Positions 1,923 through 62,530 are shown, counted from the first letter of the stretch. The stretch: 64,000 nucleotides of DNA from Octopus vulgaris (GCA_951406725.2 OX597837.1:37882001-37946000), one strand, 5' to 3'. Program-made: numbers and translations. The notes: generated by a model from the letters alone, not told the origin.

Positions 1923-1960
1923 ACCAACTGACGAAGTTGACTACACTGAAACCGGTGGGT
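1923..1960 (+). ncRNA. Degenerate minimal hammerhead ribozyme motif
   Basis: CTGACGA, stem II agt/act, GAAA, palindromic ACCGGT; cleavage position is G and stem I is poor. Confidence 0.4.
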
Positions 1961-1968
1961 CAAAAGAA

Positions 1969-2130
1969 TACAGTAATCTCTCTTCATATCGCGGTTCACT
2001 TATCGTGGTTCACTTATCGCGGTTCACTTATCGCGGTTTATCATTTAAGTTTACGTCGATTCCTCCGTGGTATCGGATTTAAAATAAAATAAATATATAC
2101 AAATTATAAAAATGACAAAAAAAATATACA
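1969..2130 (+). mobile_element. pogo/Tigger-like terminus with 14-bp subterminal tandem repeats
   Basis: TA-CAGTAATCTCTC..TATCGCGG start; about 4x tatcgcggttcact. Confidence 0.55.
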
Positions 2131-2390
2131 GTCGGCCCGAGGCTGTAGTAGAAGATACTTGCTCAATGTGCCACGCAGTGGGACTGAACGCGGAACTATG
2201 TGGTTGGAAAGCAAGCTTTTTACCAGACAGCCACTACTGCAAGTATTACTAGAGTTGGCTCAGACAACATTCTTTAGTCTTGGATAGTCTTCGGTAGGTT
2301 TTCTAAGATAAGGAACCAAATTCCCTTTCAAGGAGGGAAAGCCTTCCATTTCATAAATCATGAAATAATATAAAACAGACATATTCCCTC

Positions 2391-2488
2391 AAGGAATACA
2401 AGAGAAGGCATGACAATGTCGGCAGAATGGTTCATTGGGAACAATGTATCAAGTATAGATTGAAAAAAAAGCGAGAATATGGTATGAA
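2391..2488 (+). mobile_element. R4/Dong-like RLE LINE fragment
   Basis: Translates KEYKRRHDNVGRMVHWEQCIKY..WYE (RHD..VHW motif). Confidence 0.75.
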
Positions 2489-2796
2489 TATATATATATA
2501 TATATATATATATATATATATATATATATATATATATATACACAGTGAAGCTTTACTATAGCGTCGTATATTATCGACTGCTATTTCCAGTAAATATTGT
2601 TGTATCACTATTCTATATATATATATTTGTATATATATAAGTTTTATCATGGCTTACCGAATAATTGTCACATATTACATTTACAGATAAATTCCTCTAT
2701 TTACAATAATATCGAGGTCTCTTTCATTCTTTTGTTGTCTTACCATTTTTATCAATAGATATATATAGACCGCTAACTCCACAAGTTTTTTTTAAT

Positions 2797-2950
2797 TCTC
2801 TCTCTGTTTATTTCCTTGTGTTCCTTTCTGTTGAAGAGCGTAGGTTCGAAACGTAAAAGACTTTCTCTCCTTCTCGAGTGTCAAACTAATACACCAGCTT
2901 TTTGTTTATACACCTGTCTTCGTCTTTTGTTTTTCTGTAAATTTCCACAA
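2797..2950 (+). mobile_element. Family E short element with hammerhead-like motif (2824-2859)
   Basis: cttt-CTGTTGA-A-gagc gtag gttc-GAAA-cg-TA-aaag; five related copies in window. Confidence 0.65.
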
Positions 2951-3170
2951 TATATATATATATGTATCTATGTGTGTGTGTTTGTATCTGTGTTTGTCCC
3001 CCCCCTCAACCACCGCTTGACAACCGGTGTTGGTGTATTTACGTCCCCGGAATCTAGCGCTTTGGTAAAAGACGCCGATACGTAGCAATAAGTAACAGGT
3101 TTAATAAAAAAAAAATAGTACTGAGGTCCGTTAGTTCGGCTAAAGATTCTCCAAGGCGGTACCCCAAATA

Positions 3171-3645
3171 GAATGTGTGATAGAAAATGACAGACTTTTT
3201 GGGATTTCGCGATCCAATGTGATCAGAGAATCGAACGCCGGAAGTCCGATGTTATACTGGCTGACAAGGGAGAAAAAATCATGCTTGACTTTAGACGTCG
3301 TTTGCCCTGGAGACAGCGGAGTCGTTGGAAAAAGAAGGAGAAAATCTGACGAGATTTGATGCTCCGAAGAGAGAAATCAAACAGTTATGGATGATGGCAA
3401 AAGGCGTGTATTGTGCCAATAATTGTGTGTTGCCCCAGGTTACAGTGAGCAAAGAAATTGAAAGATTGGTTGTAAAAGATTGGCATCAAAATGAAGTTAG
3501 AGTACGTCCAGAAAACAGCGTTTCTAGGCTGTGTTTATGGTCTCCGTAATGTTCTGGGAACTTGAAAAGAAATGTCTGCTCTAGTTCACGGGAAGTGAAC
3601 AGCTGGTAACGCGGCCTCCAGCATCAAGCTGAGTTTGGTAGTTGT
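3171..3645 (+). mobile_element. R4/Dong-like RLE LINE 3' end, frameshifted, ending in (TAA)n
   Basis: IEND..WDFAIQCDQRIERRKSDV..LDVVCPGD..IKQLW..VPII..KIGI..VQKTAFLG..LRNVL*. Confidence 0.85.
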
Positions 3646-3967
3646 AATAATAATAATAATAATAATAATAATAATAATAATAATAATAATAATAATAATA
3701 ATAATAATAATAATAATAATAATAATAATAATAATAATAATAATTAGGTTAATCCTTTATACCATAGGCACAAGGCCTGAAATTTGGTGGGGGATAAATT
3801 ATATTGATCCCAGTATTCAAATGGTACGTATTTCATTGACCCTGAAATTATGCTAACCTTGGCAGAATTTGAACTCTGCTAAGAATTTTGCCCTACATGC
3901 TAATGGTTCTGTTAGCTCACTGCTTATAATAATAATAATAATAATCAATAATAATCATAATAGTGTA

Positions 3968-59400: not shown

Positions 59401-59460
59401 ATATATGTGTGTGTATGTATATATATATATATATATATATATATATACATGTATATTATT

Positions 59461-59882
59461 TGGTTGTGTGGTAAGAAGCTTGCTTACCAACCACATGCTC
59501 CCGGGTTCAGTCCCACTACGTGGCACCTTGGGCAGCTGTCTTCTGGTATAGCTTCGGGCTGACCAAAGCCTTGTGAGCAGATTTGGTAGAAGAAAACTGA
59601 AAGAAGCCCGTCGTATATATATATATATATATACAAAAACATATGTGTGTGTATATATTTGTGTGTCTGTGTTTACTGTGTTCTTCCCCCCCCCCGCAAC
59701 ATCGCTTGACAACCGATGTTGGTGCGTTTATGTCTCCGTAACTTAGCCGTTCGGCAAAAGAGCCCGATAGAATAAGTACTAGACTTACAAAGAATAAGTC
59801 CTAGGGTCGATTCGCTCGACTAAAGATAGTGCTCCAGCATGGCCGCAGCCAAATGACTGACACAAATAAAAGAATAAAAGAA
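59461..59882 (+). mobile_element. SINE-A
   Basis: Family match. Confidence 0.92.
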
Positions 59883-60529
59883 TATATATACATATATATA
59901 TATATATTTGTGTGTGTGTGTGTGTATGTTTGTGTACACAGATATAAATTTTCAGTCATTTATAAAGCATACATATACATAGACACATATATTACGAAAT
60001 AAGTGTATATACATGCATGCATGTGTGTGTATATATATATATATATATATATATATATATATATATATATATATATATTTGTACATGTATGGATATTCAC
60101 ACACATATATATATACATCGATGAATATATTTAAGAGATTAAGTGGATATGTAGATTTGGCTATACACACATTTTATATAGGGCATATACATAAATATAT
60201 ACAAATACAAAGTAAGATGGGGGTTATGGGATATCATTTATCAAATATACTGTTGGTAAAGTACCCAAATTCTTAATAAATAAATGTTCTTAATTGCAAT
60301 ACAATTAATTTATTTATTGTATTAAACGGGCGAAGGTAAAGAAATATTTTTTATAATACAAATATGAAAATGGAGAAACAAATTTAGTTCGTATATATAT
60401 ATATATATATATATATATATATATATATATACAATAAGATATATATGCAATAATACGTATATAGTTACAAGCATATACAACTATGCGTAGATACATACAT
60501 ACATACATACATACATACATACATACATA

Positions 60530-60693
60530 ACACAAATTCTTGATTCCTTCACTACATATGATCACAATATCTGGCACTATAAAAATCTGCAAGACTTTCT
60601 TAAGGTTTAAAGGATGACGGACAAACAAGAGGCTTTCCTTCACAACCTAGAGGGCCGGTCGAAATTTACTCTAAACTAAAAAGAGAAAAATAA
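60530..60693 (+). mobile_element. RLE LINE 3' end inside (CATA)n
   Basis: ITISGTIKICKTFLRFKG*. Confidence 0.7.
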
Positions 60694-60775
60694 CATACAT
60701 ACATACATACATATACATACATACATACATACATATATATATATATATATATATATATATATATATATATACATA

Positions 60776-61430
60776 GGCGCAGGAGTGGGTGTGTGGTAAG
60801 TAGCTGGCTTCCCAATCACATGGTTACGGGTTCAGTCCCACTACGTGGCACCTTGGGCAAGTTTCTTCTACTATAGCCTCGGGCCGATCAAAGCTTTGTG
60901 AGTGGATTTGGTAGTCGGAAACTGAAAGAAGCCTGTCGTATATATGTATATATATATATATATATATATATATATATATATATATATATATATATATATA
61001 TATATATACTTTATTTTATTTTAAGCAGCAGAAAAGAATTTTCTGCTGCTTAAAATAAAATAAAGCATATTACTCTACCACTGGTATTTGAGTACTCTTT
61101 TTTCCACCTTGTTTCACATTTATGTGTTTACCCCGGTATATATATATACATATATATATATATATATATATATAGATAGATAGATAGATATGTATGTATG
61201 TATGTATGTATATATATATATATATATATATATATGTATATTTGTGTTTGTCCCCCTACTATCGCTTGACAACCGATGCTGGTGGGTTTACGTCCCCGTA
61301 ACTTAGCGGCTCGGCATAAGAGACCGATAAGAACTAGGCTTATAAAGAGCAAGTCCTGGGTCGATTTGTTCGACTAAAGGCGGTGCTCCAGCATGGCCTC
61401 AGTCAAATTACTGAAACAAGTAAAAGTATA
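60776..61430 (+). mobile_element. SINE-A split by a nested family F element (61008-61137)
   Basis: 5' half 60776-60940, 3' half 61240-61430; short palindrome plus family F tail lies in the internal (TA)n. Confidence 0.85.
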
Positions 61431-61849
61431 TAAGAATAATACATACATACATACATACATACATACATACATACATACATACATATATACACTCACTTAT
61501 ATGCATACTTCTAAATATAGATACATATAGAGAAAGGTGAACACGCACATACGAGTACAAAGTACATATATTCACGTATATAGAAGCACTATATGCGTAC
61601 ACATGACTTACGAAACAGTTCGAGTGGTTTTGAGTTCGATCCCAGGGCGCAGCTTCGTGGGCCAATGTAGTGACAGTGTTTGGTTAACCAAACTGTTCCC
61701 AGTGGAAACGTGGTAAATGGCTTGGGTGATCTAGGGGAGTTCATTCTCTGGCAGTAGGTCTTGGTTGCAGGGGGAAAATGGGAAGACAAATTTTCATGGG
61801 AAACAACCCCATCTCCAACACCTTTTCTCGGGATTCCAACTTCAATCGT

Positions 61850-62110
61850 CCCCCTTTCTTTCTTCCTTCCTTTCCTTCCTTCCTTCTTTTTTCTTTCTTT
61901 CTTTCTTTCTTTCTTTCTTTCTTTCTTTCTTTCTTTCTTTCTTTCTTTCTTTCTTTCTTTCTTTCTTTCCTTCCTTCCTTCCTTCCTTCCTTTCTTTCTT
62001 TCATTCTTTCTTTCTTTCCCCCTTTCTTTCTTCCTTCCTTTCCTTCTTTCTTTCTTTCTTTCTTTCTTTCTTTCTTTCTTTCTTTCGTTCTTTCTTTCGT
62101 TCTTTCTTTT
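61850..62110. repeat. (TTTC/TTCC)n polypyrimidine tract
   Basis: Direct reading. Confidence 0.95.
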
Positions 62111-62344
62111 TTATGCATGTGTATATGCGTATGTGTGCGTGTGTATATATATATATGTATATATATACATATATATATATATATATATATATATATACGT
62201 ATATCTATCTCTCTATCTATCTATCTATCTATCTATCTATCTATCTATCTATCTATCTATCTATCTATCTATCTATCTATCTATGTATGTATGTATGTAT
62301 GTATGTATGTATGTATGTATGTATGTATGTATGTATGTATGTAT

Positions 62345-62530
62345 AGGGAGAGTTTATGAAAAAAGCAAAAGACGAAGACAGGTGGTGTACAAAACAAACA
62401 GATGTATTAGTATAACGCTCAGGAATAGAAAAAAATTCTTTTACATTTCGAGCCTACGCTCTTCTACAGAAAGCGACACAGAAAAAAAACAAATATGTGT
62501 GTGGTGGCTAACGATCTATCATGGCGATAC
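62345..62530 (-). mobile_element. Family E element with hammerhead-like motif (62438-62473)
   Basis: cttt-CTGTAGA-A-gagc gtag gctc-GAAA-tg-TA-aaag. Confidence 0.65.

Follow-up and report, generated by a model that had tools for sequence, protein, structure and literature searches.

Two questions are raised by this stretch of octopus DNA, namely whether the many strings in it that resemble hammerhead ribozymes are real members of that class and, if so, what kind of element left them there. The window, that is the whole stretch analyzed, covers 64,000 nt of Octopus vulgaris (GCA_951406725.2 OX597837.1:37882001-37946000), and all positions are counted from its first letter. The original prediction, made by a model from the sequence alone, placed 13 motifs in about seven unrelated sequence contexts, mostly in or beside (TA)n, and took them for microsatellite-targeted, non-autonomous ribozyme retroelements related to Penelope-like elements (PLEs) and to retrozymes.

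Hammerhead motifs and the play of chance

Each of the 13 named positions is the edge of a hammerhead-like string, and the strings do fall into seven contexts, denoted here A to G. Five contexts are represented once (A, 1923; D, 18502; E, 19016; F, 41976; G, 58630), whereas B recurs at 2824, 33188, 43726, 47071 and 62438, and C at 12288, 59161 and 59261. As hammerhead families, five of the seven hold up, one (D) is doubtful and one (A) fails. Site A (1923..1961, + strand) has the canonical core boxes and a 6-nt palindrome, together with a G at the cleavage position, none of six helix I pairs and no stable helix II, and it was rejected as a hammerhead. Site D (18501..18566, +), a single copy, combines canonical boxes and an 8-nt quasi-palindrome with a long irregular helix II and a helix I of three pairs, two of them G-U. 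Family E (18847..19060, −) has a canonical core at 19053, a predicted cut after 19021, a six-pair helix I, and a 170-nt 3′ part that ends in (TA)n. Site F (41975..42016, +) has a canonical core at 41981 and a five-pair helix II, while the first pair of its helix I is broken.

The core boxes CUGANGA and GAAA...UH are present in D, E, F and G, and in A without the H; the core is changed in 8 of the 13 motifs, namely the five of family B and the three of family C. When the pairing of helices I and II is asked for along with a palindrome in helix III, 10 of 13 motifs pass a relaxed descriptor, the misses being 12288, 18502 and 1923, and a canonical core coincides with passing helices in E, F and G only (3/13). 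Seven motifs lie on the + strand and six on the − strand. In this one window, 64 kb contain 11 credible motifs, distributed over 10 insertions.

Such strings might simply arise by chance in low-complexity, AT-rich DNA. A family-blind type I descriptor was therefore run at three settings, each against 25 dinucleotide shuffles made in 200-nt blocks. The strict setting (helix III palindromic, no more than one change in the core) returned seven matches, all at named sites, against a shuffle mean of 0.08 (maximum 1); the relaxed setting returned nine, again all at named sites, against 0.36 (maximum 3); and with loop 2 allowed up to 70 nt there were 11, ten named and one unnamed (41864), against 1.88 (maximum 5), the copies recovered amounting to five families rather than ten independent events. 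The frequency thus exceeds that of shuffled sequence at all three settings, as the original prediction required, with thresholds that were chosen after the sites had been seen. This choice speaks for chance, as do the failure of site A, the 1.9 bare core boxes found per shuffle and the want of an Rfam match at the cut-off; against it stand the strict result, the better conservation of the B motif than of its flanks, and the majority letters that repair the helices of C and G (both described below). Chance is refuted for B, C and G and holds at most for A and D; as an account of the whole set it is scarcely credible.

The search with Rfam Hammerhead_1, proposed together with the original prediction, gave no match at the gathering score in this window. 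The best score of the model (RF00163) is 16 bits at site F (E 0.3), a weak match compared with the cut-off of 34, and neither family E nor the second copy of B gave a hammerhead match in Rfam. Ranked by E-value, the window yields 925 Rfam matches; among the matches listed, miRNA models lying on microsatellite dominate, and microsatellite makes up 34% of the window.

Families B, C and G

Family B comprises five copies. Copy 1 (2765..2949, +; motif 2824-2859, core at 2828, predicted cut after 2855) ends in (TA)n; copy 2 (33151..33314, +; core at 33192, predicted cut after 33219) has (TA)n on each side; copy 3 (43620..43836, −; core at 43757, predicted cut after 43730) belongs to a diverged subfamily; copy 4 (46981..47113, −; core at 47102, predicted cut after 47075) has a (TA)n end; and copy 5 (62346..62527, −; core at 62469, predicted cut after 62442) has microsatellite on each side. 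Position 6 is U in four of these copies, copy 1 included, and C in copy 3, so that none has the canonical core. The motif is nevertheless better kept than its surroundings, with 28 of 36 columns invariant compared with 40 of 89 in the 3′ flank (Fisher P 0.0013). Its helices pair in 43 of 45 cells, and because none of the nine pairs shows a compensatory change among the five copies, it is conservation that argues for the pairing. With its 5′ flank rich in U, a single bulged base ahead of G10.1-C11.1 and a helix III that is palindromic, the motif fits the min-HHR consensus given in the part of Cervera and De la Pena 2014 (PMC4209133) considered here. Another register, with a later GAAGA as core box, left helix I unpaired and was dropped. 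The B patterns had no match in viral contigs and metagenomes.

Family C is represented by three insertions. The first consists of a short inverted arm (12253..12286, −), which holds the 5′ part of the motif only and abuts (TA)n, and a long arm (12288..12440, +) with motif 12288-12344, core at 12301 and a predicted cut after 12330; in the long arm, position 4 is C, helix II contains a mismatch, and a tail of about 75 nt leads into (TA)n. Homology shows the motif at 12288 to be real, a decayed member of its family that the descriptor missed. The second insertion has a whole motif in each arm: the inverted arm (59138..59232, −; core at 59204, predicted cut after 59175) lacks the tail and abuts (TA)n, and the long arm (59248..59399, +; core at 59274, predicted cut after 59303) continues through the tail into (TA)n. 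The third (61009..61136), which was not among the sites first named, is a head-to-head pair with a one-sided tail, truncated below the motif and thus without a hammerhead. Position 4 is C in all three motifs and in the partial arm, the canonical core being absent, and no reversion to U4 occurs among the 40 of 72 contig variants listed. Helix II has three pairs, and helix I carries a 9-bp extension.

The region that holds both C and G (58601-59399) is covered by contigs in four of four runs, from three organisms (7075, 4625, 6261 and 175 contigs), and the common contig letters mostly repair the helices of both families. For C, helix II is restored by the majority letter at 59282 in 85-92% and at 59196 in 92-95% (three large runs). 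The same contigs bear on what kind of element C is. In three runs, the depth over the motif is 106-196 times that 5′ of the hairpin base, contig depth not being copy number, and the loose ends at the hairpin base agree at only about 0.5, i.e. the flanks vary, among the 24 of 757 rows listed; in many contigs the left arm, at 59206-59218, is fused to the right arm at points that vary. The C patterns had no match in metagenomes.

These observations are what might be expected if C, and perhaps B, were discrete non-autonomous elements of about 150-200 nt, made of a hammerhead and a tail, with master copies of their own, and moved into (TA)n by the enzymes of a PLE, a narrower form of the original prediction. 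B adds to this in that four of its five copies are units of 164-217 nt with microsatellite on both sides. However, both arms of the second C insertion run on for 14 nt of common sequence past the hairpin base, which shows that there is a longer template; template switching, and with it a sharp edge, could be due to the 9-bp helix I extension itself; and the 5′ ends of B vary among the copies, all lying no more than about 90 nt from the core. This reading is possible, and it is kept as a tentative second choice. A more specific form of it, held with slightly greater doubt, is that C is a discrete and very abundant element of about 150 nt, little more than a U4C hammerhead with a PLE-type tail, whose 5′ edge would be set by the extended helix I of the ribozyme and which would lie as head-to-head pairs in (TA)n.

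Family G differs in its depth profile. Its main arm (58602..58920, −) has the whole motif, with a canonical core at 58717, a predicted cut after 58634, a helix II in which about 50 inserted nt fold as a longer stem, and an 8-nt palindromic helix III, and it abuts (TA)n; the inverted arm (58923..59082, +) has the 3′ half of the motif, a tail of about 85 nt and then (TA)n. Contig depth drops stepwise toward the 5′ side, the motif having 2.4-3.3 times the depth of the upstream part, beyond which it is lower still, and G thus behaves like the 5′-truncated end of a long element. The majority letter repairs helix II at 58707 in 96-100% of the depth and at 58709 in 65-66% (three runs). Other common letters do not favor the fold: the one at 58702 breaks the ninth helix II pair, the G10.1-C11.1 Watson-Crick pair (58646) is lost in 42-59% of the depth, and a perfect palindrome in helix III reaches a majority in two of four runs only (69, 35, 41 and 52%). 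In a modeled two-molecule fold, G is predicted to form helix I, helix II and an intermolecular helix III of eight pairs. Among six units modeled in this way, an intermolecular helix III with helix II kept in each molecule appeared in G and E only, while the fourth copy of B and site F misfold, and the second copy of B and family C swap strands.

Insertion into TA repeats and a probable Penelope-like parent

The predicted association with (TA)n holds for most motifs, 9 of 13 (8 of 12 insertions) lying within 150 nt of (TA)4 or more. No (TA)n directly adjoins A, D or F. Since 35.6% of unmasked positions are equally near (TA)4+, the binomial P for 8 of 12 insertions is 0.028. All 13 mapped element ends of B, C and G run into TA/AT repeats within one base, these ends having been picked by the analyst in a window that is 34% microsatellite. 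A 150-nt SINE-like family ends in the same manner, so the TA bias is not specific.

More telling is the arrangement of the arms. Head-to-head arms with a tail on one of them occur in all three insertions of C, in G and in a pair at 5606..5850 that has no hammerhead inside and belongs to a sister family of the tail of E (72% over 98 nt); none of the five B regions has an inverted partner. PLE insertions, according to the portion of Craig et al. 2021 (PMC8557442) considered here, are 5′ truncated, have an inverted truncated copy beside the end and a tail on one side, and prefer (TA)n as target, and most min-HHRs in the portion of PMC4209133 considered are single motifs or opposite-strand pairs 100-700 bp apart. 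The TA-flanked pairs of C and G show the published footprint of Penelope-like insertions. The two most telling features, both missed by the original prediction, are these pairs, tailed on one side, and the core changes that run through whole families.

The best explanation, to which we assign a probability of about 0.6, is that several Penelope-like families carry minimal type I hammerheads in their 3′ end (pseudo-LTR region) and have left the motifs here in dead, 5′-truncated copies; there is no full-length copy in the window. For the families it can be stated that the motif is conserved relative to its flanks, that copy number is high, that 3′ ends are common and lie at (TA)n, and that 5′ ends vary. 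From the literature, both enzymes would come from an autonomous element, which encodes a reverse transcriptase as well as a GIY-YIG nuclease able to nick (TA)n; target-primed reverse transcription would begin at the 3′ end of the RNA and usually stop early; and the second target strand would prime at a TA-like site inside the RNA, giving an inverted arm without a tail. In a tandem transcript of the parent, two hammerheads may come together by way of their palindromic helix III and cleave slowly after H17, which would set free a unit RNA. As the sequence 5′ of the cut is kept in every whole copy, the copies were made from RNA uncut at that site.

Parentage is inferred here, because no reverse transcriptase or GIY-YIG gene is tied to any motif. 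A Pfam search with 60 six-frame pieces of the window gave nothing under E 0.05, and no PLE reverse transcriptase or GIY-YIG frame was found beside D, E, F, G or copies 2 and 4 of B, although truncated ends are not expected to keep one. Against a PLE origin count the sharp depth drop of C, unlike gradual truncation, the closeness of the B 5′ ends to the core, and tails longer than those published. Three coding candidates were followed without success. The minus strand at 41520-41960, beside F, had been guessed by eye to be a broken PLE reverse transcriptase; Pfam was blank, and the three matches of this stretch in 1.84 billion proteins are repeat proteins, none of which could be aligned to the window in return. 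At 53271 (−), a broken frame containing YRDD had no homologue among 332 candidates, and a coding piece at 32790-33132 (minus), considered as the parent of B, is the end of an unrelated LINE beside the second copy, which recurs without a hammerhead at 5946-6295.

The original prediction had also likened the families to retrozymes, and non-LTR retrozymes, whose tandem units are cut into small circular RNAs and reinserted, could in principle have left solo monomers here. Dispersed solo monomers are common in Xenopus, according to the part of the preprint bioRxiv 10.64898/2026.07.22.740005 considered, and a unit of 150-220 nt is within the range given in the part of PMC7229834 considered. The motifs fail the retrozyme test, however, because none is in tandem: a tandem or permuted copy was found at 0 of 12 motif regions tested, none of these regions has a same-strand partner within 1.5 kb, and no TRF array with a period of 40-1000 lies on any motif in the window. 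Moreover, the motifs are of the minimal PLE type rather than the canonical type with loop 1-loop 2 contacts, and inverted arms of which only one has a tail are characteristic of PLEs. A retrozyme origin is thus improbable.

Cleavage of host introns, the other function proposed, fared no better. The density of motifs and the same-strand copies of one family 14-47 kb apart (copies 1 and 2 of B; copies 3, 4 and 5 of B; insertions 1 and 2 of C), two of which a long transcript could hold, would suit motifs kept by the host to cut or destabilize intron RNA. But no host gene was found in the pieces tested (a frame at 50840-51133 had no homologue among 78 candidates, and no host gene was placed), the strands show no bias, single copies carry helix-breaking changes absent from the family majority, monomers had no detectable cleavage in the part of PMC4209133 considered, and a head-to-head pair places only one sense ribozyme in any transcript. 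Host use is therefore very improbable, if not quite as much so as chance, and copies scattered singly, as here, probably have little effect on host transcripts.

Relation to known hammerheads and significance

Under the Penelope-like reading, the closest relatives are the min-HHRs of metazoan PLEs (PMC4209133, in the part considered), which are alike in type I topology, short helix I, the bulged base before helix II (B and E), palindromic helix III, and in the presence of several unrelated families per genome, mostly as single copies or opposite-strand pairs. The differences are in helix II, which is unusually long in G and has three pairs in C, in the 9-bp extension of helix I in C, and in that no PLE gene was found alongside. 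The published descriptor requires CUGANGA and so would miss B (position 6) and C (position 4), whose changes occur in no core of the alignment part examined. The insertions resemble those of PMC8557442, in the portion considered, in truncation, inverted copy, one-sided tail and (TA)n targets, with tails of 75-85 nt instead of 30-40 nt. Four tail strings (B, C and G) and three motif strings were not found in the supplement of that paper, a weak miss because the DNA there is broken into 70-letter lines.

Metazoan non-LTR retrozymes, as described in parts of PMC7229834 and bioRxiv 10.64898/2026.07.22.740005, are likewise short and non-coding with a type I hammerhead, and are probably derived from and mobilized by PLEs; they are defined by tandem repeats and circular RNAs, whereas no tandem copy occurs at the motif regions here. 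The small PLE-associated variants of Lunse et al. 2017, with short helix III, dimer cleavage and low rates according to the part of the review PMC6765202 considered, are of a similar kind. A literature search on octopus hammerheads, non-autonomous Penelope elements, A6U and U4C gave no paper on these families, which supplements may hold.

Core changes of this sort have precedents in the part of Perreault et al. 2011 (PMC3088659) considered here: A6C in a phage hammerhead is weak but active (kobs <0.1 per min), and U4C in a viroid is reduced in vitro and sufficient in vivo. The changed cores of B and C would most likely make weak ribozymes. The variants of that study are rare single cases, whereas here two high-copy animal families have the changes in every copy seen, and position 6 is mostly U in B rather than C as in the phage.

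Most of the motifs are thus real, and they resemble the already described PLE-end hammerheads in TA repeats; the original prediction is borne out in that they are of minimal type I with a palindrome in helix III, PLE-like in kind, and belong to high-copy families ending in (TA)n. As the window adds several families to a class already counted in thousands per animal genome, neither the motifs nor their density would surprise a specialist, and the modest surprise is that two common families have an altered catalytic core. Since 8 of 13 motifs would escape the published descriptor and all escape the Rfam cut-off, hammerhead counts in such genomes may be too low. B and C provide natural high-copy test cases of whether weak PLE hammerheads cut or only pair two RNAs. 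If C is indeed a discrete element, it would indicate, together with B, that successful animal retroelements can fix deliberately weakened cores, which standard hammerhead searches overlook.

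Occurrence and authenticity of the hammerhead motifs

Hammerhead-like strings are present at all 13 coordinates named in the original prediction. Self-comparison of the window, which is AT-rich animal DNA with 34% microsatellite and many short repeats, places them in seven sequence contexts, in line with the approximate number proposed: A (1923), B (five copies, at 2824, 33188, 43726, 47071 and 62438), C (three copies, at 12288, 59161 and 59261), and D (18502), E (19016), F (41976) and G (58630), with one site each. Each site was parsed against the type I scheme, and the window was scanned with a family-blind descriptor, with shuffled sequences as the control. 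The strict descriptor gave 7 matches versus 0.08 in shuffles, that with one mismatch per helix 9 versus 0.36, and that with loop 2 of up to 70 nt 11 (10 named, one unnamed) versus 1.88, where the thresholds were chosen after the sites were known and the matches represent five families, not ten independent events. The excess over shuffled sequence, a comparison put forward with the original prediction, is clear.

Three of the 13 named sites are missed by the descriptor: 12288, where helix II of a family C copy is damaged; 18502, which has good boxes, irregular helices and no second copy; and 1923, which was rejected as a hammerhead because helix I is absent and the cleavage position is occupied by G. 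An Rfam scan of the window returned no matches at the Rfam cut-offs, site F scoring 16 bits on Hammerhead_1 versus a cut-off of 34. Bare core boxes number 10 in the window versus a shuffle mean of 1.9, so a few further decayed motifs may exist. A single-copy string at 13927-13972 (+) has the canonical core boxes; its helix II is 3 pairs long, its palindrome is rich in wobbles and its helix I is bulged. It fails the descriptor and was not among the coordinates first named.

The hammerhead motifs of the window are real and of a known kind. As described in PMC4209133, minimal hammerheads number thousands per animal genome, mostly single and some in opposite-strand pairs, and probably derive from truncated Penelope-like elements (PLEs); cleavage of the monomers was undetectable and that of the dimers low. 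The original picture is borne out in that the motifs are real and mostly as described, and needs correction at 1923, which fails. No account of these particular families was found in the literature searched, with some supplements and Lunse 2017 lying outside that search.

Core variants and family consensus

Canonical cores occur in E, F and G, the last with about 50 additional bases in helix II that fold as a longer stem. Eight of the 13 motifs are core variants, because family B is altered at core position A6 and family C at U4. In family B, A6 is replaced by U in four copies and by C in one; helix I has 3-4 pairs, helix II follows one bulged A and has 4 pairs with G10.1-C11.1 as the closing pair, helix III is a 4-nt palindrome, and H is present at the cleavage position. 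Invariant columns make up 28/36 of its motif versus 40/89 of the 3' flank (P 0.0013), and no compensatory changes were found in the helices among its copies. In family C, U4 is replaced by C, helix II has 3 pairs, helix III spans 9 nt with the middle base free, and helix I is extended by 9 bp. Both A6C and U4C are reported in PMC3088659 as natural hammerhead variants, weak but active.

Besides the window itself, the sequence material consisted of contigs from four public runs aligned to one 799-nt stretch (58601-59399). These number 7075, 4625, 6261 and 175, and families C and G are therefore high-copy in three related organisms, contig depth not being equal to copy number. The helix breaks of the window copies are mostly mended by the family-common letter, which restores two pairs in helix II of G and, in helix II of C, one pair together with the loop. 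Other observations point the opposite way: in G, the letter prevailing at 58702 disrupts the ninth pair of helix II, the first pair of this helix is a wobble in about half of the contig depth, and the perfect palindrome reaches a majority in just two of the four runs. No core changes in C or G were found among the 40 variants listed of 72.

Anatomy of the insertions

Each of the family C insertions, C1 (12253-12440), C2 (59138-59399) and C3 (61009-61136, motif lost), is bounded by (TA)n runs and consists of two head-to-head arms, just one of which carries a tail, of about 75 nt. Family G has the same build, with a one-sided tail of 85 nt; this arrangement was overlooked originally. The head-to-head pairs are family-wide, since contigs link positions 59206-59218 of the left C arm with numerous points along the right arm. 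Family E terminates in (TA)n; the E tail shows 72% similarity to a separate head-to-head pair at 5606-5850. Family B copies have a common 3' end at TA and variable 5' ends, and no inverted partner was found beside them. The proposed microsatellite targeting is retained as a TA association of 8/12 insertions (P 0.028), which is real but modest over background and common to local SINEs too.

Two further repeats were noted. Adjoining C1, a 130-nt near-perfect inverted repeat (89%) with TA on its flanks (12473-12602) looks like either a MITE or another head-to-head end; beside family E, a 98-nt element with (TA)n at its end has two copies (7968-8065 and 18709-18806, 94% alike).

Families B and C may be either truncated ends or discrete short elements. 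The depth of family G drops stepwise toward the 5' side, 2.4-3.3-fold and then further, as for a long element, whereas that of family C drops 106-196-fold exactly at the hairpin base and the flanks there vary, a pattern expected of a discrete short element. However, both arms of C2 continue 14 nt past the hairpin base with common sequence, and the extended helix I of C could cause template switching there. The 5' ends of all five family B copies lie no more than about 90 nt from the core. Over the family C tail (59330-59399), contig depth is 3-7 times that over the C motif, and most C copies may be tail only, like C3; the depth step may lie at the cut site, where the window copy has a deletion. 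Retrozymes were also named originally; the insertions do not fit the retrozyme definition of PMC7229834 and bioRxiv 10.64898/2026.07.22.740005, because no copy in the window is tandem or permuted.

Parentage, mechanism and host

No PLE gene linked to a motif was found: Pfam searches of 60 six-frame pieces were blank, and a protein search with the sequence adjoining F yielded chance matches only. Because of this, we infer PLE parentage from motif type and insertion anatomy. According to section 6 of PMC8557442, PLE traits are truncation at the 5' end, an inverted copy alongside, a tail on one side and (TA)n as the target, and the C and G insertions resemble those elements in inverted arm, one-sided tail and (TA)n flanks. 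PMC13282606 lists 31 recently active PLE families in octopus and, in the part consulted, does not mention hammerheads. A broken frame at 53050-53650 (-), with YRDD at 53271, resembles by eye a Naiad-type PLE reverse transcriptase; no homologues of it were found.

The coding piece beside the family B copy at 33151-33314 was rejected as a PLE gene, being the end of an unrelated LINE (32790-33132, -). Further LINE 3' ends lie at 5946-6295, 15349-15504, 40014-40226 and 60534-60608; relatives carry RVT_1 and zf-RVT, and we take these LINEs to be of the restriction-like-endonuclease clade. SINE-like repeats are abundant and form three families, about 150, 175 and 190 nt long (e.g., 11870-12020, 14643-14819 and 9460-10088). 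One cluster contains 16 pieces and a merged one 34; TA or CA repeats flank many of them, and the families presumably resemble known octopus repeats. A tRNA-like SINE, recognized by eye, lies at 33900-34260 (-), with a partial second copy at 11415-11528; a hammerhead-like string at 33917 is antisense to it and has neither helix I nor H.

The motif, its conservation and abundance, the TA ends and the inverted pairs are the observed basis for a mechanism in which a PLE protein would nick (TA)n and carry out target-primed reverse transcription that would stop early; second-strand priming inside the RNA would produce the arm without a tail, and slow dimer cleavage may occur in the parent's tandem transcript. 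In the predicted two-molecule fold, the intermolecular helix III is clean for G and E only. The suggested cleavage of host introns is unlikely to do harm, because no host gene was found in the pieces of the window tested, the motifs are spread 7 versus 6 over the strands, and a head-to-head pair places one sense ribozyme in each transcript. What remains of interest are the two high-copy core-variant families and the abrupt 5' boundary of family C.
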